Shown: positions 3,243 to 53,096, numbered from the stretch's first letter. The stretch is 64,000 nt of DNA from an uncultured virus (IMG/VR IMGVR_UViG_3300021598_001639) (IMGVR_UViG_3300021598_001639), one strand, 5' to 3'. Notes: generated from the letters alone by a model not told the origin. Numbers and translations: made by a program.

Positions 3243-3949
3243 TGTACTACTTAGCCCTAAATCAATAAAACTTAATCATATAAAGGGTTTTAACATTTTA
3301 GACTTTAAAAAACCCCATTTTAAAATCAATAAAACTCTGTCATAGTATGGCTTTGACCCGTTTGTACTATGTAGTGGGGGGGATAACTTTATTTTTTTTA
3401 TCTTCCCCTTACCCCGCACCCCAAAAATATTTTTCCACTACCACTTGACATTTTGTTTATTCCCATGCTATGCTATACACATAGCGAAAAATAGAGTGGG
3501 GGATAGGATACTAGAGTGCTTTAATTCTAGGGTATTCACAAATCAACCTATCAAAAATTAAATATATATTTTACATATTTAGCCCACATTCACCCTTTTA
3601 CCCATTTTTTACCTCTCAGACCATTACAAATTGGTTTATTGGTAAAAGTATCATGACCCACTCTGAAGTGCGGGAAAAGGCTGATAAACGAAAAAGTCTA
3701 ACCCCTCCCCTATCAAAGCAAAAAACAGTTTTGAATCGTTGAGGCTTCCAAATGCTTCAATCTGCTCAATCTAGATGGTATATGTTTTTTAGTGCCTAAA
3801 CTGCGATGATTAAAGAGGTGGAAGATAAAAAAAATAAAGTTATCCCCCCCACTACATAGTACAAACGGGTCAAAGCCATACTATGACAGAGTAAAATGTT
3901 GAAACCCTAGATATGATTGGGTTTTATTGATTTTGGGCTAAGTAGTACA
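3243..3949. repeat. Long inverted-repeat element A (non-coding, internal promoter)
   Basis: Arms about 3243-3406 and 3819-3949 are inverted copies (TGTACTAC...TGTACTATGTAGTGGGGGGGATAACTTT); promoter TTGACA 3445 / TATGCT 3469. Confidence 0.9.
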
Positions 3950-3994
3950 ATAAATTTTTGAGTATTGTCCTTTTGGGAATTTTTTGTTATGCTG

Positions 3995-5321
3995 GGAACA
4001 GCTTTAGACCCGCCTTTGTTAACATTCATTAACATTTACGGTAGTTTACTACCACGGTTAAAGTCTAAAAGATTTTTCTCAAACCCCTTGACATTCTAAC
4101 TACCATTTGTTATACTTTAATTATTGCAACCCATTTAATGCCATGCTATTAGGATTTAAAACTGAAATCAACCCTAATAAAACCCAACTAACTCTCCTAG
4201 CCCAAAATGCTGGAGTAGCTAGACACGCATGGAATTGGGGGTTAGCTCTCACTAAACAGATTCTTAACCATAATAAAATCAATCCAGATGAGAAAATTAA
4301 ATTCCCTTCAGCTATTGATTTACATAAATGGTTAGTTGCTATCGTTAAAAGAGATAATCCTTGGTACTACGAAAGCAGTAAATGGAGTCCGCAAAATGCT
4401 CTTCGAGCCTTGTCGGACGCATGGCAACGCTGTTTTAAAAAAGTATCTGGAAGTCCTAAATTCAAAAAGAAAGGTAGAAATGATAAATTCACTCTTGATG
4501 GTTCTATCACCGTAGGACATCAAAAAATAAAAATACCTAATTTAGGTTGGGTTAAGACTTTTGAGAGATTACCACAAGGGATTTCACCTAAATCAGTTAC
4601 CCTGTCTAAAAAAGCTGATAGATGGTTTATTAGCTTCAGAATTGAAGTAGAACCCACTAATCCTGAGAAATCAGTTGATGTAGTAGGTGTTGACCTAGGA
4701 ATTAAAGCCCTAGCTACACTATCTACAGGGGAAACTTTTCAAGGTTCAAAACCCTATAAAAGATTGGAATCTAAGTTATCCCGCTTACAATGGTTAAACC
4801 GACATAAAACGATTGGTTCTAACAATTGGAGAAAAGCCCAATTAAAAATAGCTAATCTGCATAGAAAGATTGCTAACATTCGTAAAGATACATTACACAA
4901 ATTGACTAGCTATCTGACCAAGAACCACGGTATGATAGTTATTGAAGATTTAAATGTATCTGGAATGATGGCTAATCATTGTCTAGCCAAAGCTATTCAG
5001 GATATGGGGTTTTACGAGTTTAGAAGACAGTTAACATACAAAACAGAGTTATACGGGTCTAAACTGGTAGTAGTAGATAGATGGTTTCCGTCATCTAAAA
5101 CTTGCTCTAACTGCGGAGTTAAAAAGGATAAATTGACTCTATCAGACCGAATTTTCAACTGTGATAGTTGTGGGTTTGAAATAGATAGAGATTTGAATGC
5201 TAGTATTAATCTAGCAAAAGCGGGCAGTTAGCTCGTGTTAGCTTGTGGAGTGGAGTTAGGCCGTCCTTACCACAATGAAGCAAGAAATTAATGTTAATGA
5301 ATGTTAACATTTTTATAACGG
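3995..5321 (+). mobile_element. Non-autonomous IS607-like element with tnpB only (no tnpA)
   Basis: Left end TTTAGACCCGCCTTTGTTAACATTCATTAACAT; right end ATGTTAATGAATGTTAACATTTTTATAACGG; tnpB in between. Confidence 0.7.
4143..5231 (+). CDS. tnpB: TnpB RNA-guided endonuclease, RuvC triad intact
   Basis: N-terminal HTH (GFKTEINPN...ARHAWNWGL), RuvC-I VGVDLG, RuvC-II IVIEDL, Zn finger CSNC..CDSC, RuvC-III DRDLNASINL; promoter TTGACA 4088-N17-TATACT. Confidence 0.95.
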   Translation: MLLGFKTEINPNKTQLTLLAQNAGVARHAWNWGLALTKQILNHNKINPDEKIKFPSAIDLHKWLVAIVKRDNPWYYESSKWSPQNALRALSDAWQRCFKKVSGSPKFKKKGRNDKFTLDGSITVGHQKIKIPNLGWVKTFERLPQGISPKSVTLSKKADRWFISFRIEVEPTNPEKSVDVVGVDLGIKALATLSTGETFQGSKPYKRLESKLSRLQWLNRHKTIGSNNWRKAQLKIANLHRKIANIRKDTLHKLTSYLTKNHGMIVIEDLNVSGMMANHCLAKAIQDMGFYEFRRQLTYKTELYGSKLVVVDRWFPSSKTCSNCGVKKDKLTLSDRIFNCDSCGFEIDRDLNASINLAKAGS

Positions 5322-5341
5322 AACAGCTAATTAACTCCACC
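5217..5341 (+). ncRNA. Putative TnpB omegaRNA (scaffold to ...ATAACGG 5321, then guide AACAGCTAATTAACTCCACC)
   Basis: Overlaps the tnpB stop and right end; stems GCTTGTGG...CCACAATGAAGC; near-identical second copy at 56683-56778. Confidence 0.65.
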
Positions 5342-5356
5342 TCCCCCAAAAAACTA

Positions 5357-5644
5357 ATGAACAATCCACAACCAAAACCAGTAAAAGTCTATGTAACAGA
5401 GTACGCCCTAACAGCCGGGGTTTATTTAACTGAAGCCGAAATTTCAGAGTGTGGACGTTTTGCAAGAGCAAAAAATCAGTTTGGGACAGACACTGCGTAT
5501 ACTCTAGGAAAGTCAGCCTTTTTTACCGTTGAAGAAGCAAAAGCAAATTTTGAAAAACGAAAAGCTTCTGCCCTTAAATCTGCTGAAAAGAAAATCAAAA
5601 AATTGAAAAATTTAGAGTTTTCTTTTACAGATTGCATTGACTAA
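5357..5644 (+). CDS. Hypothetical phage protein
   Basis: ORF KVYVTEYALTAGVY...; followed by hairpin terminator at about 5678-5705. Confidence 0.65.
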   Translation: MNNPQPKPVKVYVTEYALTAGVYLTEAEISECGRFARAKNQFGTDTAYTLGKSAFFTVEEAKANFEKRKASALKSAEKKIKKLKNLEFSFTDCID

Positions 5645-5724
5645 ATCACAACCAGAACCGCAAAGAGTTTTTCACTAACCCTGCCGTAAAACAGACGGGG
5701 TTTTTACCCAAATTTCCCCTGACT

Positions 5725-5980
5725 AATCCATACCAACCAGAACCGCAAAGAAGAGTTTATGTTACTAGATACTCTCTAACATCTGGAGTTTATCGAACAA
5801 ATTCATATTTCTTAAACCCGTACGATGTAGCTTTTGTCAAAAACCGACAAGGAGCTATTATTACCATAAAAGTTGGTAAGTCAGTCTTTTTGACGTACGA
5901 AGAAGCAAAAAAAGATTCTGAAAAACGAAAAGCTTTTGCCAGGAGATACTTTTGTCCGCTTGAAAACAGTAAATACAAGT
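5725..5980 (+). pseudogene. Degenerate duplicate of the 5357-5644 gene
   Basis: ...RVYVTRYSLTSGVY...VGKSVFLTYEEAKKDSEKRKA parallels the upstream gene; no clear ATG. Confidence 0.55.
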
Positions 5981-6060
5981 AATGACGATAATATTTTCGG
6001 AATATTTGTTACTAGCAAGACTGAAATTATTTTCGCCAGCATAACTTCTGTTTTGTAAAT

Positions 6061-6963
6061 TTAAGCTAATCCTTGAGTCCAGACTCGCATTAATATTCTT
6101 TCCGATCCTAACACCCCGACACATATCCAAGTATTCATGTTTGATAGATCAGGGTCTATTCCTGTATTTCTATAGACTTCTCCCACAGGTATCTGTAAAC
6201 TTGTTTTTAACAGATTCGGCACATACCCAATAGCCTTGTTAGGTGCGTCATTATCCCTTAAGTAAAATTCTGTGGTGTTCGCTCCTGGAGTAGCGGACAG
6301 ACAAGAAACAGGATAATTAGCAATAGGGTCAGCATCTGGTAGCTGAGGAATATTAAAATTGCGAACAACATTGCTATTTTCAGCAGAAGGTCTAAAACCT
6401 CTAATTTGATGAGTGTCTGAATCTAATATCAATATATAGGCATTTCTAGGAAAAGCATTACCGCTATAGATTGAGTTATTAAGCCAACCAAAACTAACAA
6501 AACAAAAATTATTATTGTTTAAATCCTGCCCGTTTCTTGCTATTGAAAAAATACTAAGACTTCTATTGTTTAATACGCCGTAAAAAGCACGAGATGAAGC
6601 TCCAGCGAATAAGTAACTACTGTCGTATAAGCTGTCGTTATTATTCGCTATAGTTGGATAGCTTATTCTCGCCGCAGATGTAACATTAATGTTAGTAGTT
6701 ACAGTTGACGCATTTTCCTCTCCAAATCTATATTTAGAACTGGTAGCTGGGAAAGTAAGACTTTCAAAAGAAGTGGGGAATATAACTTTTAGCGTAGTAG
6801 ATGAGGATGTAACAGCACAGGTTTGGTTAAAAAAATTGTTAATCCAAGTAGCTAATTGAGCCGTGGTAAATCCAACAGATTCAGGACTGTACAAAAGATC
6901 ATTAATTCTCCATCCGTAATAAGAATTGCCGAAGGTGTCGGTGTTGATTAAAGGTAAATTCAT
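6061..6963 (-). CDS. Probable virion/tail-associated protein
   Basis: 300 aa, N/S/T-rich beta-type composition, in the tail operon direction. Confidence 0.5.
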   Translation of the reverse strand: MNLPLINTDTFGNSYYGWRINDLLYSPESVGFTTAQLATWINNFFNQTCAVTSSSTTLKVIFPTSFESLTFPATSSKYRFGEENASTVTTNINVTSAARISYPTIANNNDSLYDSSYLFAGASSRAFYGVLNNRSLSIFSIARNGQDLNNNNFCFVSFGWLNNSIYSGNAFPRNAYILILDSDTHQIRGFRPSAENSNVVRNFNIPQLPDADPIANYPVSCLSATPGANTTEFYLRDNDAPNKAIGYVPNLLKTSLQIPVGEVYRNTGIDPDLSNMNTWICVGVLGSERILMRVWTQGLA

Positions 6964-7178
6964 GGCGTTCTATCAAATCCTGAGTTATTAAGATCAAAAG
7001 CGCAATAAACAAAAGTCCCGTTAACGGGATCAATTGGTCTTAATTCGTTAACAGAAAAAGCGCAATAAACAAAAGTCCCGTTAACGGGATCAATTGGTCT
7101 TAATTCGTTAACAGAAAAAGCACAGTAAACAAAAGTGTTATATAGAATTGTATCTGGCCAGTACAACCATCTAGGCAT
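6960..7178 (-). CDS. Small protein with 20-aa tandem repeat
   Basis: 60-bp tandem repeat about 6996-7136 (TFVYCAFSVNELRPIDPVNG x2 plus partial). Confidence 0.55.
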   Translation of the reverse strand: MPRWLYWPDTILYNTFVYCAFSVNELRPIDPVNGTFVYCAFSVNELRPIDPVNGTFVYCAFDLNNSGFDRTP

Positions 7179-7232
7179 ATTGAATACTTAAGGAAAAATC
7201 TATATTAACAGGATTAGAGATATTAGAATTTA

Positions 7233-7553
7233 CAGTAGATAAAAGATTAACATTCGTAAATATCTAAGGGTATCAACTCCCTATTTTGGGTAGCTTAGTT
7301 AGGAATTTTATACGGATTCCTCTAAAACTAATCACTCTGCGAGCTAATTGCACGCTTTACCATAGTTAAAGGGGGTTTTGACCCGTTATAATTAAGCTTG
7401 GTTTTTGCCTAACTAATTTTGTTGGGTTAACCCCCGTATAACAGATGGTCGATAAGATGTCAAGGGGGGGTGGGTTGAGAAAAATCTTTTAGACTTAAAC
7501 CCTAGTAGTAAACTACTGTAAATGTTAATGAATGTTAACAAAGGCGGGTCTAA
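7233..7553 (-). mobile_element. IS607-like left-end copy and promoter fused to a gene remnant and a second IS-end-like motif
   Basis: 7435-7553 matches the tnpB left end and promoter (4003-4116); about 7355-7430 matches 56775-56850; 7233-7294 matches 32073-32134. Confidence 0.75.
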
Positions 7554-7577
7554 AACTAAGCACTTTCAAAATTTGAG

Positions 7578-8686: not shown

Positions 8687-8913
8687 TAAACCCTCCGAAG
8701 CTCTTGAGAAAGTTTGTCAACATAAGGTCTTACTTCAGGGTTAAGTAATTCTTCTGTTATATCTTTTTTAATAATTACCCTAACTTCGTTTTCTTCTTGG
8801 GTAACTTTAGCATTCTCAAACTGTTGAGTAAGAAAGTCAACTTTATTAAACAAAGAAATGATTTTGTCTTGTTTAAATCTATCTAATTCAGCATGGTTAC
8901 GAACGACGGGCAT
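8686..8913 (-). CDS. Small neck/tail completion protein (start re-called at MPVVRNH)
   Basis: ATG 8913 directly after the stop of 8924-9352. Confidence 0.45.
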   Translation of the reverse strand: MPVVRNHAELDRFKQDKIISLFNKVDFLTQQFENAKVTQEENEVRVIIKKDITEELLNPEVRPYVDKLSQELRRV

Positions 8914-8923
8914 AAAATTATTC

Positions 8924-38067: not shown

Positions 38068-38146
38068 ACTTCTTACCATAAGCTTTCTATCAAGCTTATG
38101 GTATATTTAGATAAGAATAAAAGAAGGTCGACCCATGAGAAAAATA

Positions 38147-40556: not shown

Positions 40557-40603
40557 TGCAGATTGTGACATAATAGAGACATTAGTAAGTTAGGAGTAAA
40601 TAA

Positions 40604-40939: not shown

Positions 40940-41252
40940 AGTAATATTCCGTAAATGGAATAAAGATATAGACCCTAAACAAGGCATAATCGCAATATTC
41001 CCAGAGGAAATAGTATCACTGTCATTCTTAGATTGTGATTCATGGCAAAGAGTCGGAGAATATGGTGATATTAATTCTTGGAGTCCATGCAATCCTGAAG
41101 TAGTAATTAAGGGTTCAAAACTTGCTACTGAAAGTCAATATCTAGAGGACAAAAATTACCTAGAAAATCATTACGGGTATAATCTAAAGGTTCTGAAAAG
41201 AATACCCAGAACTGCCATAAAGGTAAGAAGCAAAAACATAGCCCAATTATAG
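40920..41252 (+). CDS. Early protein, family 2 (tandem paralogue)
   Basis: Shares KVIFRKWNK..QGIIAIFPE..KNYLENHYGY. Confidence 0.72.
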   Translation: MDTQKTKVIFRKWNKDIDPKQGIIAIFPEEIVSLSFLDCDSWQRVGEYGDINSWSPCNPEVVIKGSKLATESQYLEDKNYLENHYGYNLKVLKRIPRTAIKVRSKNIAQL

Positions 41253-41261
41253 GAGGGTATC

Positions 41262-41558
41262 ATGACACAGGACAACAAAAGAAATTACAGCTTTTTGGTT
41301 AAGGTAAGGGATAAGGACGGAAAACTTATTCCGTGCGACGAAACAACTGACAACACACGGATTAGCTTTGACTTAGCTGAGTTGACCGATAAGCAGGTAA
41401 TTTCTCACCTAAAATCAACGGGGAAAACATTAAAGGCTTGGATGCCAGATGATCGAAAAATCGGAATAGATGCTTATGTCTTTGATTCTATTTCAAGGAC
41501 TTATACGCTCCTTTTTTCGTGGTATGATGTGGATGTTGAGAAAGTTGTGAAGCATTAA
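41262..41558 (+). CDS. Hypothetical early protein
   Basis: RBS GGAGG, ORF. Confidence 0.65.
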   Translation: MTQDNKRNYSFLVKVRDKDGKLIPCDETTDNTRISFDLAELTDKQVISHLKSTGKTLKAWMPDDRKIGIDAYVFDSISRTYTLLFSWYDVDVEKVVKH

Positions 41559-41609
41559 TTATCAGGTATCAGTTATCAGTAAAAAACACCCATTAAGAGA
41601 GAAAAAAAC

Positions 41610-41837
41610 ATGACAGAAATTAAGGAATACACTAGAAGACTCACAATCAACCTAGATGTAACATTATCTGCAAAAAGCGAAAAAGAAGCCTTAGAATTGT
41701 TTGAAAATATCTACCCGCTTATCAGTTTAAGCTATATGGACATAGAGTTAAACAGGTATGACATAGAGGATGAGATACCTGAACTCATTGATTGGGATAC
41801 TCATATCGACACAGCCGATTGGGAGATAGAGGATTAA
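41610..41837 (+). CDS. Acidic early protein, family 3
   Basis: KEYT..L.I...V.AK..KEA...WEIED, paralogue of 42536. Confidence 0.65.
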   Translation: MTEIKEYTRRLTINLDVTLSAKSEKEALELFENIYPLISLSYMDIELNRYDIEDEIPELIDWDTHIDTADWEIED

Positions 41838-41885
41838 TGACCAGGTATCAGTTATCAGTAGCCATTATTTAGGAGTACCAAAAAG

Positions 41886-42089
41886 ATGAACTTTACCTTT
41901 TTTGATCTAGGCTATGCAGTGAAATTGACCAATGGGGAAACCGACATTTTACTACAGGGTGAGGATGCTGAAATCTTCTTAAAACAAGTCGATACCCTTA
42001 AGGAATTATGGGAAAATGGCAATCCTAACTATGAAGTTTTCCCTAGCTACGAGAAACATTTAGAAGTTTTGATCGAGCCTTATTTTTAA
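41886..42089 (+). CDS. Hypothetical early protein
   Basis: RBS AGGAG, ORF. Confidence 0.65.
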   Translation: MNFTFFDLGYAVKLTNGETDILLQGEDAEIFLKQVDTLKELWENGNPNYEVFPSYEKHLEVLIEPYF

Positions 42090-42141
42090 TCAGTTCCAGT
42101 TATCAGTTATCGGTAAACATTAACCATTTAGGAGTAGAAAA

Positions 42142-42465
42142 ATGTACCAAAAATTAAGCACCGATGAAGCTATTAAATTACTGAAATATGATCATAGTGC
42201 TGGTTGGTCATGGGAGGGTGCTACAGCTTTAATTGAGTACCTAGAAAACTTAGAGGATAGTGATAAGCCTATCAAATTTGATAGAGTCGCTTTGCGGTGT
42301 GATTTTTCAGAATATGATAGCGTCCTAGAGGCGGCGGAACATTATGATTTTATTCCCCCCGATGATGAGGATGAGGATGAGATAGAAGCGGAGGCACTTA
42401 AATATTTGGAGGATCGGACGACCGTAATTCAATTTGAGGGTGGTGTAATTATTAAGGACTTTTAA
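42142..42465 (+). CDS. Highly acidic early protein
   Basis: WSWEGATALIEYLE..FDRVALRCDFSEY..DDEDEDE. Confidence 0.72.
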   Translation: MYQKLSTDEAIKLLKYDHSAGWSWEGATALIEYLENLEDSDKPIKFDRVALRCDFSEYDSVLEAAEHYDFIPPDDEDEDEIEAEALKYLEDRTTVIQFEGGVIIKDF

Positions 42466-42468
42466 TTA

Positions 42469-42510
42469 ATCAGTTATCAGTTATCAGTTATCAGTTATCA
42501 GTTATCAGTA
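42469..42510 (+). repeat. STRR-type heptamer tandem repeat (TTATCAG)n
   Basis: About five to six tandem units; shorter runs at about 34751, 41559, 41846, 42099 and 42735. Confidence 0.85.
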
Positions 42511-42535
42511 ATTAACACATAATAGGAGTAAAAAA

Positions 42536-42727
42536 ATGAAGGAATATACAGGGAGTTTAAACCTCACAATTGAGGTCACGGTTAAGGCAAAAAACAGAAA
42601 AGAAGCGTCGTCAATGTTTGACGATTTATACACTCAAATCAGCATAGAAAATGACGGGAACCAATTGATAGAGATAGTTAGCGATAATCTGGGATTACTC
42701 GAAAATAGTTGGGATATAGAAGATTAA
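42536..42727 (+). CDS. Acidic early protein, family 3
   Basis: Paralogue of 41610. Confidence 0.65.
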   Translation: MKEYTGSLNLTIEVTVKAKNRKEASSMFDDLYTQISIENDGNQLIEIVSDNLGLLENSWDIED

Positions 42728-42776
42728 GTAGGAGTTATCAGTTATCAGTAAAAAAAGCCAAAAAGTCAAGAGTATA

Positions 42777-42846
42777 TGTGACAGTTTATAAATTGTCACA
42801 ACCTACCAAAAAACCCCTTGACAATCCAAGAGATAAATGACATAAT
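42777..42846 (+). promoter_or_regulatory. Representative early promoter: palindrome plus TTGACA-N17-CATAAT
   Basis: TGTGACAGTTTATAAATTGTCACA then TTGACA 42818 and CATAAT 42841; same module at about 39030, 39564, 40160, 45148, 46397, 47115 and through 48-52 kb. Confidence 0.85.
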
Positions 42847-42877
42847 AGGTACATAAGCAAAAAAACGGGAGTACATC

Positions 42878-43459
42878 ATGAACTATCAACCGCAATATCT
42901 TAAAAAATGGACAGAAGCACCAAATTATTTAGGGATGGATTTAACGGACTTCTATGTAGTAGCGGCTGAATCAGAGCAGAGTGATTCAGTAGATATGAGT
43001 AATTATCGAGTATGGCATCGATTATTTCCAGACTTAGAAGAGTTTAGTTTTGGGGGTTGCATGGAATTTAAAGCTTTAATGATTCATAAAGATTCTTTGC
43101 TATTAGAAGCAATAGATGAGAAAAAGAAAAGCTTGGAAGACTACTCAATACTAGATGAACAAGACTTGTCTGACTTAGAATATGAGCAGTGGTATGAGTA
43201 TTGGTCAAATTGGGGATATATTGAGTGTTTTAAGGAATTGTTAATAGCAATACCTGAGTTAAAAGATGATGAACGAGTAACGAGTCTGGATAATAAGTGT
43301 GTATTAACCAGTGATGAGTTAGGTGAGTTAATTGAGGATTTTGCTAACGATTTTGCGAATCTAGACGATTTTAGTATTAGTTTTAATTTTAGCGAGTCTG
43401 AGAAGGAATTGCTACTGAAAAGACTAGAGGACATTTTAAGCCGAACTGAGGAAAACTAA
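42878..43459 (+). CDS. Highly acidic early protein
   Basis: 193 aa, D/E-rich; terminator hairpin about 43467-43495. Confidence 0.72.
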   Translation: MNYQPQYLKKWTEAPNYLGMDLTDFYVVAAESEQSDSVDMSNYRVWHRLFPDLEEFSFGGCMEFKALMIHKDSLLLEAIDEKKKSLEDYSILDEQDLSDLEYEQWYEYWSNWGYIECFKELLIAIPELKDDERVTSLDNKCVLTSDELGELIEDFANDFANLDDFSISFNFSESEKELLLKRLEDILSRTEEN

Positions 43460-43734
43460 CATAAACAAAAGGGTGAGTTAATGTACTCACCTTTTCTTGT
43501 CTATACCAAACAAGGCAGAAATATGTAGGAGTTGTGTAATAAAGAATGAATAATGCAGGTATGTGTATCAGGTTTGTATATAAGCAAAACTAATAACAAA
43601 GATAAGAAAAAATTATATAAGGTAAAGTTATAGCAAGGGCGGATAGGGATAAGAAAATAAAATACGAAAAGTATTGACACAGGACTGAAAAGATAGCATA
43701 ATGGGTACATAAGCAAACAAAGAGGAAAAAGACA

Positions 43735-44166
43735 ATGTATAGCACAAAATGGACAGAAATACACTATCTGGGAAAACGAAAAAAAGACGGAAAACTAATA
43801 TATATAGCCGCCCCGACATGGGATTGTGATTGGTACTGGTCTTTCGGGTATTTAAGGGCAAAAGGGGAACATTACCACTTGAGCAACTATGGGAATATCA
43901 ACTGGCAAGAGGCTCTAGAAAGAGACTACACTTTAAACGTAAAATTGAGAGGGGATAACCTATGGAAGTTTTACGAACTAGCGAAAACAGCTTATGGATT
44001 AAAGGAAGTAGCGGAAATATTAGGTAGAGGTGGTTCTCATGTAACGGTAAACCCGTTAGCAGAGGTAATCAAAAATAAAGCAGAGGTTGACAGAATCAAT
44101 CAGATAGTATTACCTCAAATATTTGATGCAATAAATGAGATGTTCGAGGTAAGAAAAACACCTTGA
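43735..44166 (+). CDS. Conserved-looking phage protein
   Basis: IYIAAPTWDCDWYWSFGYL...ILGRGGSH. Confidence 0.72.
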   Translation: MYSTKWTEIHYLGKRKKDGKLIYIAAPTWDCDWYWSFGYLRAKGEHYHLSNYGNINWQEALERDYTLNVKLRGDNLWKFYELAKTAYGLKEVAEILGRGGSHVTVNPLAEVIKNKAEVDRINQIVLPQIFDAINEMFEVRKTP

Positions 44167-44218
44167 CAAAGAAATAGGGTAGCCTAAAAAAAGTTACCCT
44201 ATTTTTAGATGTAAATTG

Positions 44219-44989
44219 TTAGTTAGCTACCTTACCATATTTAGGTAAATGACTACGATGTGTTTCAAAGAAACCGGGCAAAACAGCGAAGGAGGTATCT
44301 TTAAACTTAGCGTAAGAACCTTGATGAAGTAATTGAAAAGACTGGTCAATATAATTTTTAGATTGACCGTATTTACCTTCAATCCCAGAATCATCAAGGT
44401 CTGAAACAAGCCACTCGATGGTTTCCTGTCTAAGGTCATCCAAGTCAGGGGGAATAGAAAGTCCTAACATTTTAGCGATAGTGCCGTTAGTTCTAGCGTG
44501 AATTGTCTCGTCCCTGCTAATCTCTGCGGAAACCATAGCTAACTGAGTACCACCTAAACGGCGGTATAAAGTTAAGACCGGAAAAAAGATAGATTGTTCG
44601 GCGACCCAAGTAACTAAAACGGGGTGATATTTCTCTCCCATTTTTAACCATTTAGAGACTAAAGAACGAGATTCAGACTCAATTTGTAGTTTATCAGTAA
44701 GATTAGCTAAAGAGATATTTGAATAGGCATAATTTAACTGAGAGTCATGTTTTTTTTCGTCTTTAAAATTAGAGGCTAATAATAAAATACCGTAATCAGA
44801 TAACCATTTTCTCTCTCGACTAGCACACTCTTTAATCCATTGACCAACGGGTAACTCTAAGTGTCGAGCCTCTAATGCTTTTTGGATAGTTTTTTCCGCA
44901 CCCCGAACACAGTGACCGTTTTGAATAGGCATAACTGCCCAATCTCGTTTAGCGTTTAATAGACGTTGAAAAATTAATTGATCAGACAT
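44219..44989 (-). CDS. nrdB: Ribonucleotide reductase small (beta) subunit, cyanophage type
   Basis: RHLELPVG, NFKDEKKHD, AEQSIFF, EISRDETIH diiron ligands; MPGFFE-like tail (LPGFFETHRSHLPKY). Confidence 0.85.
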   Translation of the reverse strand: MSDQLIFQRLLNAKRDWAVMPIQNGHCVRGAEKTIQKALEARHLELPVGQWIKECASRERKWLSDYGILLLASNFKDEKKHDSQLNYAYSNISLANLTDKLQIESESRSLVSKWLKMGEKYHPVLVTWVAEQSIFFPVLTLYRRLGGTQLAMVSAEISRDETIHARTNGTIAKMLGLSIPPDLDDLRQETIEWLVSDLDDSGIEGKYGQSKNYIDQSFQLLHQGSYAKFKDTSFAVLPGFFETHRSHLPKYGKVAN

Positions 44990-45248
44990 AAAGTTTTTAC
45001 CAGTAAAAAATTTTTCCTTGTATTAAAGGATTGAGTGAACCCCTTGAAGGAAAGATTACCCCTGCATTATAACACAATAAAAAATTTTTAAAAATAAAAA
45101 AATCATGGTAGTATATGCACTAAAAAGCCAAAAAGTCAAGCGGTTATGTGCCAGTTTATAAACTGTCCCAAAACACCAAAAACCCCTTGACATTACAAGA
45201 GATAAGTTACATAATAGAGACATAAACAAAAAACAAGAGTACCCAATT

Positions 45249-45677
45249 ATGAAGTTGTACCAAAAGATTGCAAGAGTTTTAAGTCAAAAAAACAAGTCGC
45301 TAAATGTGATAGAGAAAGAGTTAACTTTGTTGAAAGAGTTATTGCCTAATGGTAATGTAATCGGATTACAACGTCATAACTTATCAACTGTGAGTTGCAT
45401 TATATCCCTAAAATCAACTCACAAAAGAATAGTGATAGACACAGCGTATTGGCATCCAATCATAAGACAATGGACAGAGCATCAAGTAGTAATAACACCT
45501 AGTTTTGAGGACGAAATAAACATCCGAATAACTGGTAAAAATGAGGACAACGTTAAGGACTACTTACATGATATTTTTAGTGAGGCATTAATGAAAGAGT
45601 ATGTAGTTTTTAAAAAGGGCTGGGATGTCAAAGATTCATCAGAAATAGAATCTGAACTAGAATCTGAACTAGATTAA
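45249..45677 (+). CDS. Hypothetical early protein
   Basis: WTEHQVVITPSF..INIRITGKN..VKDYL. Confidence 0.7.
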   Translation: MKLYQKIARVLSQKNKSLNVIEKELTLLKELLPNGNVIGLQRHNLSTVSCIISLKSTHKRIVIDTAYWHPIIRQWTEHQVVITPSFEDEINIRITGKNEDNVKDYLHDIFSEALMKEYVVFKKGWDVKDSSEIESELESELD

Positions 45678-45962
45678 CAGACCAAAAAAGCTAAAGCAGT
45701 GGTAAGAATCACTGCTTTAATCTAAAATAACAATTGCAGGTGTGTGCATGAGGTTAGCACATAATAAAAACTTATTACAAGGATAATCAAAAGTTATATT
45801 AGGTAATCTTATGACGATAGGACAAAATTATAAGCAAAAATAATATTAGATAAACTTATGACAATACCTAAAACAGATAAAAAAAGACAAAACTAAAAGT
45901 ATTGACATTTTTTGAAAAAGATGACATACTATAAACATAAACGAAAACCGGAGTTACCAACC

Positions 45963-46376
45963 ATGACTACACTAGACACAATGATTTTAGATTATATCGC
46001 AATTGGGGCATATTGGGCATTTAACGCTACCGTTGTATTCTTTACCGTAATGATGATAATATCGGGTGTTTTGCACGCATTTTGGGGCATTTTAGAGGGG
46101 GTGGATAGCCGAATATTTTATCCTCAAAACTTGCATAATATGGACACGACCGATACACAAATTGATACCCAAATTCCTAATTTAGAAAATCTAGAGGAAG
46201 ACTTAAATTTAGTGTCTAAAATAGAGTCAATATCTCAAGTGGCGATTAAACAGGAACTGGTAGAATCAGAAGTGGTATCAATCAGACAATTAAAAGTGAT
46301 GGCCAGAGAATTAAAAATTAAAGGTTATGGAAGTATGACAAAACAACAATTGATAGAAAAAATTCAACAGAGTTGA
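45963..46376 (+). CDS. Membrane protein with C-terminal Rho-N (HEH) domain
   Basis: N-terminal TM; SIRQLKVMARELKIKGYGSMTKQQLIEKI. Confidence 0.72.
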   Translation: MTTLDTMILDYIAIGAYWAFNATVVFFTVMMIISGVLHAFWGILEGVDSRIFYPQNLHNMDTTDTQIDTQIPNLENLEEDLNLVSKIESISQVAIKQELVESEVVSIRQLKVMARELKIKGYGSMTKQQLIEKIQQS

Positions 46377-46498
46377 GAAAAAAGTCAAGGGGCTATGTGC
46401 CAGTTTATAAACTGTCCTAAAACACCAAAAAACCCCTTGACAATTCAATAGAACAGTGGCATAATAGACACATAAGCAAAAAATAGGAGTCACCAATT

Positions 46499-46846
46499 AT
46501 GTTTGTAAGATTAAGCTATCACAATATCGACGACCTCTTTATTTTGTTTGATGCTGGGGTTATTGACTTAAAAACTAAGTCTCAGGTATCCCTATCAGAA
46601 ATAGAAGACTATGATAATTTTGGATGGTTAGAGTTAACGAGTAAAAATTTAGAGGCAATTTGTGAATATTGTGCAGAGTTAGGTATAGAGTCTAATGGTT
46701 CATTAGGTGATTTTCGTTACTGGTATTCTGCGGACATGAACTACCATTTAGAGTTAAAAAGTGACCAGTCTGAAAACTTAGAGGTTAAAATTGGAGAAAT
46801 CAACTTAAAGCTAGAGGGGTTAAAATTAATTAAAAACGAAAGCTAA
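46499..46846 (+). CDS. Early protein, family 4
   Basis: LFDAGVIDL.TK.QVSL..IEDYDNFGWLELT shared with 47218. Confidence 0.72.
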   Translation: MFVRLSYHNIDDLFILFDAGVIDLKTKSQVSLSEIEDYDNFGWLELTSKNLEAICEYCAELGIESNGSLGDFRYWYSADMNYHLELKSDQSENLEVKIGEINLKLEGLKLIKNES

Positions 46847-47217
46847 CAAAAAAAAAGGTTGAGAGCAATAGCTCAACCTTTTAATTTGTGTCTAATCGAG
46901 TGCAAGGGTAAATTATCATGTTTGTACCATTTAAAGAATGCGAAAAAAATTGTTTTCACAGTTTAACGGCTTACATAGAATAGCATTGATAGAACTGCTG
47001 ATTCTTATGTTTCTCTGGGGAGTAATCGAGCAGTATAACCATTTCAAAAATGGTGGTACATTAAGAGATAGTGCAAGGGTACAAATTCAGGAAAAATAAG
47101 AGAGCCAGAGGGATTGTGACAATTAAAAAACTGTCACAATCTAATTAAATCTCCTTGACAATTCAATAGAACAGTGGCATAATAGAGAAATAAGCCAAAA
47201 AGTACAGGGGTTAGACA

Positions 47218-47613
47218 ATGATTAAAGTAAGATTAAGCTATACACGACGACTTTATTTGTTTGATGCGGGGGTCATTGACTTAAACACTAAGTGTCAGGT
47301 ATCACTAGATGACATAGAAGACTATGATAATTTTGGATGGTTAGAGTTGACGGCGGATAAATTAGAAAATGTTTGTGAGTATTGTTCAAATTTAGGAATA
47401 GAATCTAATGTTACATTAAGTGATTTTCCTTACTGGGAACTTTCTTACTGGTACTCCTACGACCAAAATTACCGTTTAGATATAAAAAGTGATTCAGGTG
47501 AGGACTTAGGTTTAGTTAATAAAATATTTGAGATAAACTTAGGACTTTGGAAATCCAAGCTAATCAGAGAAAATAAAAATCTAAAACGGATAAATAGTTC
47601 GCTCAATATTTAA
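47218..47613 (+). CDS. Early protein, family 4
   Basis: Paralogue of 46499. Confidence 0.72.
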   Translation: MIKVRLSYTRRLYLFDAGVIDLNTKCQVSLDDIEDYDNFGWLELTADKLENVCEYCSNLGIESNVTLSDFPYWELSYWYSYDQNYRLDIKSDSGEDLGLVNKIFEINLGLWKSKLIRENKNLKRINSSLNI

Positions 47614-47755
47614 GTGAGTGTTTATTTATAAAGCTACAATGAAAAAGAAATCGTGCGGTAAGAAGATTAAAAAGGTTACTCCAAAGCCGGTTAAACCTTC
47701 TAAATAGTCAAGATAAGGACGGTGTATCCCGTCCTATTTTATTAAAATAAAAGTT

Positions 47756-47956
47756 ATGAATCTAATAAAAAATTGGTTAGTAATAATGTCTTCAGTAGGC
47801 TTATTAGGGGTTAGCGTATTGGCTATTCAAAACCCTGACAAATTCGGGCGAAACGTTGTAGAAATAACAGCGGTGCTAATAACGTCAGTTATCACCTTAG
47901 CCAAACAAAGTGATGAACATCCTAAACAAAATGATGAACCGCCTAAGAAACCTTAG
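47756..47956 (+). CDS. Small two-TM protein (holin-like or superinfection-exclusion-like)
   Basis: Two hydrophobic segments, charged tail. Confidence 0.5.
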   Translation: MNLIKNWLVIMSSVGLLGVSVLAIQNPDKFGRNVVEITAVLITSVITLAKQSDEHPKQNDEPPKKP

Positions 47957-48173
47957 AGCCTATTCCAAAAGTGCTAGTTTAAGAGGTATCACACCTGCAA
48001 AAAAGGTCAAAATATCAAGTCCAATTATGCCAGTTTATTAATTGTCACATCTATCACAAAAAAGTCAAAATGTCAAGTAAAATTATGCCAGTTTAGAAAG
48101 TGTCACATATAGTATAGAAAGTTCTAAAAAAGGTGACATAATAGTAATATAAAGAAAAACACAGGAGTTCCAA

Positions 48174-48518
48174 ATGACTAACACGGTAAACGGTGAACTA
48201 ACTTGGTTCAGAATATTAGGGCAAGATTGGAATGGTAAGACTCGTACAATGGAGATAGAGTTAGGCAAGTATGACGTAGGGGAATTAGAAAACTTAGGAT
48301 TAGGATTAGGAGAATCCGAAAAAGAAGCGAGAGAGGTGATAAATCAATGGTTGAGGGCTATAGGTATTTATGAACCTCATGGCTTTTGGAGTGTTGATTT
48401 TAGTTCAGTAACGGATTATGATTGTCAGATTGAGTTAAGTGATGGACACTATTTAAGTGTAAATTGGGAGGACGATAAAAACTATGCTAAGTATCAAGAG
48501 ATACTAAGACTTATCTAA
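48174..48518 (+). CDS. Acidic early protein, family 1
   Basis: Close paralogue of 39658. Confidence 0.78.
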   Translation: MTNTVNGELTWFRILGQDWNGKTRTMEIELGKYDVGELENLGLGLGESEKEAREVINQWLRAIGIYEPHGFWSVDFSSVTDYDCQIELSDGHYLSVNWEDDKNYAKYQEILRLI

Positions 48519-48744
48519 GCTAAATGTCAAGTCCAGATGTGCCAGTTTATAAATTGGCACATCTACCACAAAAAAGTAAAAATGTCAATACCGATTGTGC
48601 CAGTTTATTAATTGTCACATCTACCACAAAAAAGTAAAAATGTCAAGTCAAATTATGCCAGTTTAGAAAGTGTCACAAAGGGTATAGACGTTTCTAAAAA
48701 AAGATGGCATAATAGTAATATAAAGAAAAACACAGGAGTTTCAA

Positions 48745-48888
48745 ATGATTAACCCACTCAGAATCAAATTATCTGCTAAACATATTGTGGCTAAACGGGG
48801 TAAAGAAATAGTAGTGATCTATAATTTTATGCCCACAAATAATTGGAAAAAAAAAGCTAAATGGTTAAAAAAACTATTGTTTAGCTAA
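48745..48888 (+). CDS. Small basic cassette protein (47 aa)
   Basis: Standard cassette promoter and RBS ACAGGAGTTTCAA-ATG; MINPLRIKLSAKHIVAKRGK... Confidence 0.6.
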   Translation: MINPLRIKLSAKHIVAKRGKEIVVIYNFMPTNNWKKKAKWLKKLLFS

Positions 48889-49286
48889 ATGTCTATAGGT
48901 AATGTGCCAGTTTATTAATTGGCACATCTATCACAAAAGGTAAAAATGTCAATAGGTAATGTGCCAGTTTATAAATTGGCACAATAGGACTTAACAAAGA
49001 GTAAAGTCAATGCAGGTGGAAATGTGCCAGTTCATAAAGTGTCACAGCTACAACAAAAAAGTCAAACTGTCAATAGGAAATGTGCCAGTTTAGAAAGTGT
49101 CACAGCTATCATAAAAAGGTCAAAATGTCAATAGGTAATGTGCCAGTTTAGTAATTGGCACATCTACCACAAAAAGTAAAAATGTCAATAGGTAATGTGC
49201 CAGTTTAGAAAGTGTCACATAGGGTATAGACATTTCTAAAAAAAGATGACATAATAGTAATATAAAGAAAAACACAGGAGTTCCAA

Positions 49287-49535
49287 ATGATTTACGACAT
49301 CCCCCTGTTTGAAGTTGAATCCTCTGTCTTAATGTTTGTAGGTTATGAGCCAATTAGCGAAACATTAAGAATAGTATTTAAATCTGGAAGTGAGTACAAA
49401 TATACAGGAGTACCAATTCAGGTGTATCAAAATCTCTGTAATGCAGAATCTATAGGACGAGAGTTCAATCGTACTATTCGTAACAAATACGATTGTACTC
49501 TAGTACAAGAGTTAAAAGTAGCAAGAAAAGCGTAA
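49287..49535 (+). CDS. KTSC-domain protein
   Basis: VESSVLMFVGYE...LRIVFKSGSEYKYTGVP..VYQNL..AESIGREFNRTIR. Confidence 0.88.
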   Translation: MIYDIPLFEVESSVLMFVGYEPISETLRIVFKSGSEYKYTGVPIQVYQNLCNAESIGREFNRTIRNKYDCTLVQELKVARKA

Positions 49536-49819
49536 ATGTCAATAGGTAATGTGCCAGTTTATTAATTGGCACAGCTACCACAAAAAAGTAAAAATGTCAA
49601 GTCCAATTATGCCAGTTTAGAAAGTGTCACAATAGGACTTGACAGAGAGTAAAGTCAATGCAGGTGAAAATGTACCAGTTCATAAAGTGTCATAGCTACC
49701 ACAAAAAAGTCAAAATGTCAAGTCCAATTATGCCAGTTTAGAAAGTGTCACATACGGTATAGACAAATCTAAAAAAAGATGACATTATAGTTATATAGAG
49801 AAAAACACAGGAGTTCCAT

Positions 49820-49975
49820 ATGAAAACTATCGACCTAATAATTTCAGTATTATTTTCAGTATTAATTATCGGACTTTTATTTATGGCTACGATACCTAAC
49901 CAGAAAAAAGTAGAATGTGAAGTTGAAAATCAAAGTCCTGCAACGGTACGCAAAGAATACTTATACATGAGATAA
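49820..49975 (+). CDS. Small single-TM cassette protein (51 aa)
   Basis: Cassette RBS plus MKTIDLIISVLFSVLIIGLLFMATIP... Confidence 0.6.
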   Translation: MKTIDLIISVLFSVLIIGLLFMATIPNQKKVECEVENQSPATVRKEYLYMR

Positions 49976-50149
49976 AAAAGTCAAAATGTCAATAGGTAAT
50001 GTGCCAGTTTAGTAATTGGCACAGCTACAACAAAAAAGTCAAAATGTCAATAGGAAATGTGCCAGTTTAGAAAGTGTCACATATGGCATAGACAAATCTA
50101 AAAAAAGATGACATAATAGTAATATAAAGAAAAACAAAGGAGTTCCACA

Positions 50150-50490
50150 ATTGAGAACACACCCCCTGGAGAAACCATTTCCGACATCTTGAAAGAGAGA
50201 GGAATACCCTTACGAATATTTGCTAATCGGATGGAAATGTCAAGAAAGGAAGCCTTTCGACTGCTGGCAAGTGAAACTGAGATTACAGGTCGTATTGCTT
50301 GCAAATTGCAGTATGCTTTCGGCTTACCTACTGCTCATTTTTGGAAAGAGCGTGAAAGACTTTACCGAGAATCTCTAGCAAATCAAAACAATGTAATGCA
50401 GAATCTAGGGAACAATAGTTCAATCGTACTATCCGAAACAGATACGACTGTACAGTAGTACAAGTGCTAAAAGTAACAAAAAAAGCGTAA
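50150..50490 (+). pseudogene. HigA-like XRE antitoxin fragment fused to the 3' end of a KTSC gene copy; lacks an ATG start
   Basis: PPGETISDILKERG...EIT..IA.KL..AFG.P.AHFW.ERERLYRESL; 50392-50490 is DNA-homologous to 49437-49535. Confidence 0.72.
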
Positions 50491-50716
50491 ATGTCAAGTC
50501 CAGATGTGCCAGTTTATTAATTGGCACAATAGGACTTAACAAAAAGCAAAGTTTATGCAGGAAGTAATGAACCAGTTTAAAAAGAGTCACATCTACCACA
50601 AAAAGGTCAAAATGTCAAGTCAAATTATGCCAGTTTAGAAAGTGTCACATACGGTATAGACAATTCTAAAAGAAGATGATATAATAGTAATATAAAGAAA
50701 AACAAAGGAGTTCCGC

Positions 50717-51472
50717 ATGAGTTACGACACCTTCCTGATTGAAGTTAAATCCTCTGACTTATTAGCTGTCGGTTATGAACAGCTATTAAAAAACATGGCT
50801 AGTAATTTTCAAGATAAACTACCGGTAGTTATCTCAATTGGTGCTAAAGATGCGGGAAAAACCTTTAATTATATTCAGCTATCTCGCCTACAGTCTTGGG
50901 GAAATTTTTTAAATAAAGTTGATCCTAAAAATCAAGAAAATTCCGGAGAAAATCTGGGTTTAATATTTCCTTTACTCCAATCACAAAATTTAAATGATAA
51001 GTCCAAAAATATTCTTGAACAAGCACGGCTAAATGTAAATAATACACTCAATCATAATTGTCAATTTTCCATATCGGATTTTAAAGACAGAATAACGCAG
51101 TCTCTATCTAATCAAGATTGGAACGAGGTAGATTGGGCAAAATTTTGGGTCAAAGAATTTTCGAGAGTTTTAGGGTATAATCAGGAAAATTATCAACTAA
51201 ATAAACTGCATGAATACCTTAAACAAAAAAACTCGAAGATTATATTTTTAATTGATGGATTAGAAGATGCTTTTCCTAATGTCGCCAATGATAACGATAA
51301 CCTTCAACGAAAAGCCTTGAAAGCTTTGATCGATCATTTACCGAATAAATTAACAGAAATTAAGCAATCTAATCTAGGATTGATTGTCTTTCTGCGTCGA
51401 GATTTCTTGAGATATACAATCACACAAAACTCAGCACAATTTGAAAACTTATATCGTGAATACCGTTTTTAG
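50717..51472 (+). CDS. Chimera: KTSC N-terminus fused to an internal fragment of a cyanobacterial P-loop NTPase
   Basis: MSYDTFLIEVKSSDLLAVGYE resembles the 49287 start; then SIGAKDAGKT (Walker A-like) and IIFLIDGLED (Walker B). Confidence 0.72.
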   Translation: MSYDTFLIEVKSSDLLAVGYEQLLKNMASNFQDKLPVVISIGAKDAGKTFNYIQLSRLQSWGNFLNKVDPKNQENSGENLGLIFPLLQSQNLNDKSKNILEQARLNVNNTLNHNCQFSISDFKDRITQSLSNQDWNEVDWAKFWVKEFSRVLGYNQENYQLNKLHEYLKQKNSKIIFLIDGLEDAFPNVANDNDNLQRKALKALIDHLPNKLTEIKQSNLGLIVFLRRDFLRYTITQNSAQFENLYREYRF

Positions 51473-51827
51473 TGAAGACGGCAAACTACTAAAGAGTCAA
51501 TAGGAAATGTGCCAGTTTAGTAATTGGCACATCTACCACAAAAAGTAAAAATGTCAATAGGTAATGTGCCAGTTTATAAAGTGTCACATCTACCACAAAA
51601 AAGTAAAAATGTCAATAGGAAATGTGCCAGTTCATAAAGTGTCACATCTACCACAAAAAAGTAAAAATGTCAATAGGAAATGTGCCAGTTCATAAAGTGT
51701 CACAGCTACAACAAAAAAGTAAAAATGTCAATAGGTAATGTGCCAGTTTAGAAAGTGTCACATATGGCATAGACAAATCTAAAAAAAGATGACATAATAG
51801 TAATATAAAGAAAAACAAAGGAGTTCC

Positions 51828-51993
51828 TCGGATGGAAATGTCAAGAAAGGAAGCCTTTCGACTGCTGGCAAGTGAAACCGAGATTACTGATAGTATTGCT
51901 TGCAAATTGGAGAATGCTTTCGGTTTACCTAATGCTCATTTTTGGATATTGAGTGAAGAGCTTTACCGAGAATCTCTAGCAAGAAAAGCGTAA
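51828..51993 (+). pseudogene. Second, 5'-truncated HigA-like fragment in a cassette
   Basis: DNA nearly identical to 50228-50380, ending in the KTSC terminus GCAAGAAAAGCGTAA. Confidence 0.72.
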
Positions 51994-52216
51994 AATGTCA
52001 ATAGGAAATGTGCCAGTTTATAAATTGGCACACCTACCATAAAAAGGTAAAAATGTCAAGTCCCAATGTGCCAGTTTAAAAAGTGTCACAATAGGACTTG
52101 ACAAAAAGTAAAATTTATGCAGGTGATACCCCTACCCCTCTTTTAGGCTAAAAAAGAAAGTGCCTCCTTTTTGTCCTAAATTTTTTTTTTGAAAATGAAA
52201 AATCAATTTAGGCGTA

Positions 52217-53096
52217 AAACTGTACTACTTAACCAAAATCAATAAAACTCAATCATATCAAGGGTTTTAGCGTTTTTACTTTAAAAAACACCATTTTAAA
52301 ATCAATAAAGCCCAGTCATAGTATAGCTTTGACCTGTTTGTACTATGTAGTAGGGGGGATAACTTTATTTTTTTTTTATCTACTACGCCTTTAATCATCG
52401 CAGTTTAGGTACAAAAAAAACATAAACTATATAGAATGAGCAAATTAAAGCATTCGGAAGTCCTAATAAGGTGAGTCTGTTTTTTTTTTTTTTGCTTTAA
52501 CAGGGCGGGTTTTAGACTTTTCCGTATAGTGGCTTTTTTCTTTTAGCATTGTTCCACTTTAAGGTGGACATACACTACAGACAATAATAAACAGCCTTTT
52601 ACCACACTTCAGAGCGGGTCGTGATACTTTTACTATTAAACGAATTTGTAATGGTCTAAGGGGTTAAAAATGGGTAAATGAGCAAATGTGGGCTAAATAT
52701 TTAAAATATGTATTTAATTTTTGGTAGGTTGATTTTTGAATACCCTAGAATTAAAGTAATCTAGTATCCTATCCCCCATTCTATTTTTTTTTTTCGCTAT
52801 GTATATAGCATAGCATGGGTATAAACAAAATGTCAAGGGGTAGTGGAAAAATATTTTTTTTGGGGGGTGGGGTAAGGGAGAGAGGCAAAAAAGTATGAGA
52901 GTTTTTAAACTGCGATGATTAAAAGTGTAGTAGATAAAAAAAATAAAGTTATCCCCCCTACTACATAGTACAAACAGGTCTAAGCTATGCTATGACTGAA
53001 TTTTATTGATTTTTAAATGGTGTTTTTTAAAGTCAAAAATGTTAAAACCCTTAATAAGATTGAGTTTTATTGATTTTTAGAGGGGTAGTACAGTTT
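52217..53096. repeat. Long inverted-repeat element C (non-coding; interior is an inverted paralogue of element A)
   Basis: Arms about 52217-52407 and 52906-53096; minus-strand TTGACA(52836)-N18-TATGCT. Confidence 0.9.

Follow-up and report, generated by a model that had tools for sequence, protein, structure and literature searches.

The DNA analysed here is a stretch of 64,000 nucleotides (hereafter the window) from the uncultured virus IMGVR_UViG_3300021598_001639 of IMG/VR. It is a relative of the Microcystis siphophage Mic1 (MN013189.1), with which it shares long colinear blocks at 76-97% identity. Three non-coding elements, A (3243-3949, + strand), B (36022-37245, - strand) and C (52217-53096, - strand), are located where the gene direction or the gene block changes. 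In each of them, a core with a promoter, a hairpin and an AT-rich tract is enclosed by long inverted arms. Here, we confirm that A, B and C are genuine members of one module family and we weigh the functions that such a module may have. B is most likely a bidirectional replication origin, and A and C belong to a type of copy that demonstrably acts as a substrate for homologous recombination, by which whole gene blocks are rearranged.

The sequence-only reading from which this work started had described three elements with inverted arms of 130-250 nt, an internal sigma70 promoter, a hairpin with a GG bulge, an AACCTA box and an AT tract, lacking both a credible open reading frame (ORF) and a target-site duplication (TSD). 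The sequence reads as claimed, and the arms are recovered by a repeat search. The promoters are present at 3445(+), 36543(-) and 52836(-), where they match 10-11 of 12 consensus positions, and the hairpin, the box and the tract are found in all three elements. No TSD flanks A, B or C. The longest ORF, of 66 amino acids in B, is broken by stop codons in 3 of 3 orthologues, the others have at most 48 amino acids, and the small ORFs of the cores and of B are not conserved across the relatives.

Two virus records are used for comparison in addition to Mic1: G002, which has 96,796 bp and is rated complete, and G001, a 33-kb record that is 99.6-100% identical to most of the region 33.5-64 kb of the window and colinear with it across B and C. 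Element A, of type 1, has its core pointing right and has orthologues at 88856-89614 in Mic1 and 34397-35166 in G002. Its left arm (3243-3403, +) comprises the TGTACTAC end, two AAATCAATAAAAC iterons, the invariant block TTTGTACTATGTAGTGGGGGGGATAACTTTA and a T-run, while the right arm (3823-3949, -) has a 34-nt deletion relative to the left one. In the repeat search, the two arms were complementary at 100% over the inner 73 nt and at 90% over the outer 58 nt. The conserved type-1 core (3404-3700, +) is 88% identical to that of C and 83-87% identical to those of Mic1, G001 and G002. It includes the promoter (3445-3474, +; TTGACA-18-TATGCT with a TG extension, 10/12), the hairpin (3506-3537, +; 12 pairs and a GG bulge, -10 kcal/mol, z -2.07) and a conserved AACCTAYC-A5 box that is followed by an AT-only tract (3538-3585, +).

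Element B, of type 2, has its core pointing left. Its arms (36035-36183, +, and 37084-37232, -) are fully complementary over 86 nt, with weaker extensions of the inverted repeat outwards to 36022 and 37245 and inwards to 36277 and 36986. The promoter (36515-36543, -; TTGACA-17-TATGAT, 11/12) is followed by the hairpin (36474-36501, -; -10.3 kcal/mol, z -2.40), in which 3 pairs are altered on both sides relative to type 1, and by a AACCTAAC-A10 box with an AT tract (36428-36473, -). The best-conserved 40-nt bin of B, 36464-36503, covers the hairpin and the box, with 95% of the columns identical in 4 genomes. Element C, again of type 1, lies between convergent gene blocks. Its arms (52221-52375, +, and 52932-53092, -) are complementary over 114 nt at 89%. 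The promoter (52807-52836, -) has the same spacing, hexamers, TG extension and score as that of A, and the hairpin (52738-52769, -) has a predicted stability of -6.6 kcal/mol and a z of -1.01. Outside the arms, C is flanked by a terminator-like site at 53127-53152(-).

The hairpin was aligned in 21 copies, 16 of which are distinct. It has 12 pairs and the GG bulge, and 94.3% of the 192 cells of the alignment are paired, compared with 87.5% in shuffled alignments (0 of 500 reached the observed value) and 30-52% when the partners were slid. Three pairs are altered on both sides (GC/CG, UA/GC and GC/AU). The two compensatory changes reported earlier for the hairpin of B are thus real, and there is a third one, at the outermost pair, which goes from G-C to C-G. 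The same helix is recovered unaided by RNAalifold. One pair is an invariant G.U, and G.U intermediates occur at three more pairs. Since G.U pairs become A.C mismatches on the opposite strand, the fold belongs to the sense strand of the promoter; judged from its sequence, it would form in the strand that the promoter would transcribe or in a displaced DNA strand of the same sequence.

The type-1 cores are conserved over about 190 nt in total, past the hairpin, the AACCTA box and the AT tract. This conservation, together with a promoter and a covarying 5' hairpin, is what speaks for regarding each core as the stand-alone gene of a structured small RNA, with the arms as incidental. The first hairpin supports the earlier proposal of a structured non-coding RNA, but no further helix with convincing compensatory support was found in the rest of the core, and the arms also lack a structure backed by covariation. 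Moreover, no terminator-like site occurs inside A, B or C, and a search of the whole window against Rfam gave no match at the gathering score, the best sub-threshold matches having chance-level E-values of 0.18-0.38. ARAGORN found no tRNA or tmRNA. Such a gene would account for the hairpin only and would leave the invariant boxes of the arms unexplained, so we consider it improbable. Just before the hairpin of A, at 3494-3506, the core carries a third, partial copy of the G-run word of the arms (GTGGGGGATAGG), which RNAalifold pairs with TATCCCCC of the right arm (3842-3850), about 330 nt downstream. The predicted long-range pairing joins the pre-hairpin GGGGGAUA with the right-arm UAUCCCCC; both sides of these pairings are invariant.

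A search of public sequencing runs listed 23, of which 20 contain part of the stretch, all with small shares (0.09-0.14); 19 of these 20 are recorded as RNA. The contigs of four runs from four studies, compared over 35500-55499, contain the cores not at all or nearly not at all and were not used as evidence. The depth of 2.08 for the bin 52175-52841 in one run comes likewise from contigs and is uninformative about transcription. A contig joint between 52375 and 52858, apparently on opposite strands, is explained by the similarity of the arms.

The relatives show how far the family extends. Their genomes contain 4-5 modules each, at constant positions between blocks of genes, and one copy is therefore probably missing from the window. 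Complete genomes have three copies of type 1, the type of A and C, whose core measures about 280 nt, and one copy of type 2, the type of B, whose interior measures about 900 nt. Arm units occur at 13 places in Mic1, grouped in 5 sites that include doubled (nested or tandem) arms and one solo arm, and G002 has 13 units at 4 sites. In IMG/VR, the G-run pattern of the arms was found at 26 loci on 14 contigs and the hairpin pattern at 23 loci on 14 contigs; the latter is also present in 16 metagenome contigs. Of the 20 distinct hairpin variants, 15 are of type 1 and 5 of type 2, and the search of the viral and metagenome collections with this pattern gave no more divergent members of the family. 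Two arm patterns, the second of which recovers 5 of the 6 arms of the window and all 13 arms of both Mic1 and G002, had no match in a collection of prokaryote genomes that represents 185,579 species by one genome each. By these pattern searches, the family looks endemic to the clade of Mic1-like Microcystis siphophages. A sister lineage, in which the protein encoded next to B is 57% identical, has no arms in contigs of 72,948 and 60,021 bases. The available parts of two papers on Mic1 (PMC7156551, PMC11237433) describe other repeats, namely promoter motifs and ATCAGTT, and make no mention of the modules, of an origin or of skew. Among the matches listed in a search for cyanophage replication origins with inverted repeats and GC skew, nothing relevant was found. 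The modules occupy orthologous boundaries in every relative that was examined, and this, with the covariation of the hairpin, supports the proposal that they are a conserved functional device at the borders of gene blocks.

The arms have a characteristic composition. The word AAATCAATAARAY has 10 matches in the window, where 0.13 are expected, all of them within arms, and TGTACTAY has 15, 12 of them within arms, where 3.67 are expected. An alignment of 26 arms shows long invariant blocks, which are the TGTACTAC end and the two AAATCAATAAAAC iterons. A 31-nt block, TTTGTACTATGTAGTRGGGGGGATAACTTTA, is almost unchanged across both types and all the phages; it contains a TACTA-N2-TAGTA dyad in each arm and is followed by the T-run. 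The arm unit is better described as a sequence of about 200 nt that can be found in tandem or alone. Arms were said to match better within an element than between elements; this is true of B (88% against at most 79%) and of the inner section of A (100%). C is an exception, since its left and right arms are 87% identical while the left arms of C and A are 88% identical. Homogenisation in B and inner A, but not in C, fits gene conversion inside a palindrome. Compensatory change was found in none of the 25 predicted intramolecular pairs of the arms, and no terminator-like site was found inside them; a role of the arms as RNA structure or as inward terminators was rejected on these grounds. The lack of compensatory pairs, together with the long invariant blocks, indicates that the arms are DNA-level sites. 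To judge from these sequence patterns, they are most likely arrays of DNA boxes bound by a protein, probably one of the phage.

A promoter between inverted repeats could also be an invertible switch, in which the core flips between the arms. The interiors of A and C do point in opposite directions, as the sequence-only reading noted, but only because the entire element A is the reverse complement of the entire element C. Nineteen type-1 elements were oriented by their core, and pairs of flanks sharing at least 300 nt were compared in the assemblies. All 53 left-left and all 24 right-right comparisons showed the same orientation; the 0 flipped cores in 77 comparisons come from contigs many of which are near-identical and represent roughly five independent lineages. 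Across B and C, G001 has the same order as the window at 99.6-99.9% identity, and Pfam and PHROG scans of the 82 ORFs of the 64-kb stretch revealed no serine or tyrosine recombinase. The repeats of known invertible promoters are far shorter than arms of 160-250 nt, which also counts against a switch. With neither a flipped core nor a recombinase, the switch fails its defining tests and is hardly credible.

Inversion is observed on another scale. Mic1 carries a block of about 25 kb, between two type-1 copies, in the opposite orientation to G002 and, at the A junction, to the window. The flanks of the two copies are combined as a|c and d|b in all the other genomes, while Mic1 alone has a|b and d|c, and the two copies are the exact break points of the inversion. 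From the hairpin to the right arm, the two copies of Mic1 are 97-100% identical, which marks the exchange tract, compared with 80-92% for the two copies of G002. With the skew maximum roughly at its centre, the inversion would preserve the polarity of the skew.

Mobility of the modules themselves has to be considered as well. With ends of the form TGT...ACA, no ORF and long terminal inverted repeats in which sub-sites recur, the modules would resemble miniature inverted-repeat transposable elements (MITEs) with subterminal transposase-binding repeats. Termini of this kind with repeated subterminal sites are known from Tn7- and Mu-like transposon ends. Mic1 has extra tandem arms and one solo arm, and one site is polymorphic: it is empty in G002 (57554|57555), holds a full element in contig 3300008263_000725 and has the solo arm with tandem repeats in Mic1. 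However, a TSD is absent at this site as it is at the three copies of the window. The solo arm lies between direct repeats of about 45 nt with TGTACT at their end; this duplication looks like a product of recombination. All the other sites are at orthologous positions in all the relatives. The two arm patterns have no match in the genomes of the 185,579 species, hosts included, and the interior looks functional, being conserved and having the covarying hairpin. There is no DDE transposase among the 82 ORFs, and the only candidate, TnpB, belongs to a family with different ends. Without a TSD or a partner transposase, MITEs fail their defining tests as the switch does, and they are a very improbable explanation. 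In Mic1, the solo arm is adjoined at 19700-20600 (L033/L034) by tandemly repeated units of about 115-120 nt, every one of which has a hairpin.

The evidence for an origin comes from the nucleotide skew. The minimum of the cumulative GC skew is at 36073 in the window, inside B, and at 96754 in G002, inside the type-2 copy; the minimum of Mic1, 52597, coincides with the edge of a TnpB gene that has been inserted immediately next to the type-2 copy. Both maxima are close to the antipode, at 48755 of 96,796 in G002 and at 9491 in Mic1. A fit per ORF gave a position term of 0.089 for G002 and 0.091 for Mic1 and a gene-strand term of 0.059 and 0.028, respectively, and genes on the "wrong" strand still track position. 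Similarly, the plus-strand skew of the window rises across the minus-strand block at 53-64 kb and falls across the region 8-36 kb, which is mostly minus-strand as well. Since the position term exceeds the gene-strand term, the skew is not only an effect of the gene strand.

Next to B, at 35382-35870 (-), is the gene of a helix-turn-helix (HTH) protein (HTH_psq, E 3.7e-5), with a promoter of its own at 35930-35901. Contig G007, of the sister lineage that lacks arms, has its local skew minimum at 63106, where the gap upstream of the HTH gene ends, so that this gene adjoins the skew-minimum gap in both lineages. The position of the minima at the type-2 copy and in the same syntenic gap of G007 indicates that the origin is most likely located in that gap. 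For the proposal of a replication origin, this means indirect support for B, from the skew minimum in or beside the type-2 copy of three genomes and from the syntenic gap without arms; the proposal is not borne out by the skew at A and C. The gap of the sister lineage (L097 5480-5900; G007 62.6-63.1 kb) contains three direct repeats of about 30 nt, an AT-rich palindrome and a long G-run. Each of these repeats has a TGGTG-N5-CACCA-like dyad, and the word GTGGATAACTTTA resembles GGGGATAACTTTA of the arms. The HTH protein is a candidate binder of the arms or of the origin. It has only 2 clusters of homologues, its AlphaFold model is poor (mean predicted local distance difference test score, pLDDT, of 46), and searches gave no PDB sequence match (best E 0.27) and no PHROG.

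We tentatively favour, at somewhat less than even confidence, an origin-type module family with B as the bidirectional origin; A and C would be paralogous modules of putative activity, which act as recombination joints. The two inverted arms of each module, of about 160-200 nt, would be arrays of boxes (the TGTACTAC end, two AAATCAATAAAAC and TTTGTACTATGTAGTRGGGGGGATAACTTTA) that bind a phage protein. A transcript from the sigma70-type promoter between them would begin with the covarying hairpin, followed by the AACCTAYC-A5 box, and the AT-only tract beyond the box would melt easily. In B, the promoter, hairpin and AT tract would activate or prime unwinding, and the modules do have an AT-rich unwinding tract adjoining repeated candidate binding sites. 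The type-1 copies (A, C and a fourth module outside the stretch) would be paralogues of the origin module at the joints of gene blocks, where they are probably auxiliary cis-elements, either secondary or late origins or promoter and enhancer cassettes for the adjoining genes.

Several points weigh against this interpretation. GC skew is indirect evidence for an origin, and the origin and terminus used in the regression were taken from the skew itself. B is the point at which leftward and rightward genes diverge, so part of the skew signal is transcriptional, and neither A nor C shows an inflection of the skew. The gap of the sister lineage has different repeats, so that arms are not required for an origin there. 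Words resembling DnaA boxes (consensus TTATCCACA/TTTTCCACA, with at most 1 mismatch) are not enriched, with 1-2 per element and 44 in the 64 kb. R-loops persist preferentially when their RNA has a G-run, while a transcript across the arm would carry a C-run. The hairpin is of moderate stability, from -6.6 to -10.3 kcal/mol (z from -1.0 to -2.4). Finally, two of its three double changes coincide with the single split between types 1 and 2, so that there are few independent covariation events.

The modules could instead be purely cassettes for the control of transcription, with no role in replication. The promoter would then drive the neighbouring genes, the hairpin and AACCTA box would be a leader signal, for instance a nut- or put-like antitermination or RNA-stability element, and the arms would be operator or insulator arrays; B would be at the skew minimum only as the point where early and late genes diverge. 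Co-directional genes do follow the arm at 3 of 4 Mic1 sites, with E22 directed to Mic1_18 and 19, E89 to Mic1_93, 91, 90 and 89, and B to the HTH and cement genes. Element A of the window is directed towards the TnpB gene and the ORF 5291-5644. The hairpin begins about 8-27 nt into the predicted RNA, its G.U pairs suit RNA, and terminator-like sites flank C outside the arms. However, the HTH and TnpB genes are each preceded by a strong promoter that lies outside the modules, at 35930(-) and 4088(+) with 11/12 consensus positions in both cases, and there is no downstream gene for the C-type copies, which look towards the 3' end of a convergent block. The skew tracks position more than gene strand, and in the lineage without arms its minimum is again in the syntenic gap. 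We regard control of transcription alone as possible but doubtful.

Alternatively, the arms could be centromere-like or ParB-type arrays that couple segregation or compaction with the control of a promoter. Dispersed centromere-like binding arrays are known from the linear plasmid-prophage N15. The four dispersed sites, one of them at the putative origin, and the TACTA-N2-TAGTA dyad in every arm would suit such arrays, and the available text on Mic1 gives an annotation of ParA (ORF5) and ParB (ORF82) (PMC7156551). On the other hand, the homologue of ORF82 in the window (59525-60217) has no ParB domain in Pfam, even at E-values up to 1, and the parS proposed for Mic1 in that text is a different palindrome (PMC7156551). 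The promoter, hairpin and AT tract would also be left unexplained, and this possibility appears rather unlikely. The skew maximum of Mic1 at 9491, its putative terminus, is about 650 nt from the proposed parS palindrome (8828-8850), beside parA.

A bolder form of the origin hypothesis is unlikely. All four modules would then form a multi-origin, transcription-primed replication system serving the Pol-gamma-like polymerase. In it, transcripts of the host RNA polymerase, begun at the core promoter, would be processed to primers over the AT tract at a place marked by the hairpin and the AACCTA box, and a phage initiator would be loaded by the iteron arms; the modules would double as recombination joints that shuffle gene blocks. 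The system would be the bacterial-virus counterpart of the ori/rep elements of yeast mitochondria and of the baculovirus homologous regions (hrs). Overall, the interpretation offered by the sequence-only reading is partly supported.

Structures comparable with the modules are known from other systems. Transcription-activated or transcription-primed origins include the primary origin of T7, oriF and oriG of T4, RNA II of ColE1 and the mitochondrial and yeast mitochondrial ori/rep elements. As in the modules, the promoter is located immediately upstream of an AT-rich unwinding tract, and T4 and yeast mitochondrial DNA have multiple origins per genome. The family-A (Pol-gamma-like) replicase encoded by the phage is a trait shared with such systems. 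Unlike the modules, these origins have neither long iteron arms nor a conserved 5' hairpin, and the predicted RNA of the modules differs by having a C-run rather than a G-run. The origins oriL and oriS of herpes simplex virus are multi-copy palindromes with an AT centre and inverted initiator sites, located between divergent promoters. They resemble the modules in the palindrome with its AT centre and inverted sites and in the number of copies, but they have about 90-144 bp, lack an internal promoter and a hairpin RNA and are unrelated in sequence.

Baculovirus hrs are known sites of rearrangement. The modules, as dispersed palindromic repeats that are also sites of recombination, are hr-like in design only, with no relation in sequence. 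The hrs are described, in the text available to us, as dispersed repeats with origin and enhancer functions, several imperfect, gene-free palindromes per genome that lie, like the modules, between gene blocks (PMC4535591). They belong to viruses of another host domain, have other sequences and consist of tandem 60-70-bp units with a short palindrome and no core with promoter and hairpin; their origin and enhancer activity has been assayed, whereas the modules are known from sequence alone. Promoter-early stem-loops (PeSLs) are short motifs in which a terminator stem-loop precedes the promoter. The modules have their hairpin downstream of the promoter, inverted arms of 160-250 nt and only 4-5 copies, and they lack an internal terminator-like site, so the stem-loop terminator upstream of an early promoter, which defines a PeSL, is not found in them. 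The PeSL cassettes of T4-type phages are presented, in the parts of the sources at hand, as repeated promoter-bearing non-coding motifs at module joints that take part in recombinational shuffling (PMC2839356, PMC4122927).

Other features of the window are of interest in this context. The 3.6 kb between A and the tail genes, 3949-7561, has no match of at least 400 bases in Mic1 or G002. Besides three other ORFs, it contains a gene for TnpB (IS605 OrfB) at 4107-5231, which has a promoter of its own at 4088, and it is bracketed by an 86-nt inverted repeat (4000-4085 and 7472-7557, 93%). TnpB genes are found 0.06-1.2 kb from a module in all three phages, at 4107-5231 in the window, 52610-53854 in Mic1 and 62278-63018 in G002, and they are 33-40% identical. 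Elements of the IS200/IS605 group target single strands. The TnpB genes beside the modules may reflect permissive gaps or exposed single-stranded DNA. The early region, 37600-52100, has many repeated promoter-bearing cassettes, PeSL-like and in families of 6-16 copies, which match repeats reported in the available text on Mic1 (PMC7156551). At 42458-42536, there is an array of the ATCAGTT heptamer on which the contigs of all four RNA runs pile up (about 42.47-42.51 kb); its summed word depth of 12,812-109,766, with many loose ends, is expected for a repeat shared with the host, as the same text describes it (PMC7156551). The Pol-gamma-like polymerase, at 60958-63906, is split into two ORFs, 62704-63903 for the exonuclease and 60958-61848 for the polymerase, with an HNH/NUMOD4 endonuclease ORF (61924-62592) between them. 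An intron at the same point of the Mic1 polymerase is reported in that text (PMC7156551).

If B is an origin, it would be the first concrete origin candidate in a cyanophage group with a mitochondrial-type polymerase, and it would come with a compact cis-element. The engineering of phages that control Microcystis blooms needs a known origin and safe insertion sites. The modules would also explain the reorientation of gene blocks between Mic1 and its relatives, and the combination of dispersed origin-like palindromes with inversion break points would carry the hr design, known from large eukaryotic DNA viruses, into the tailed phages.

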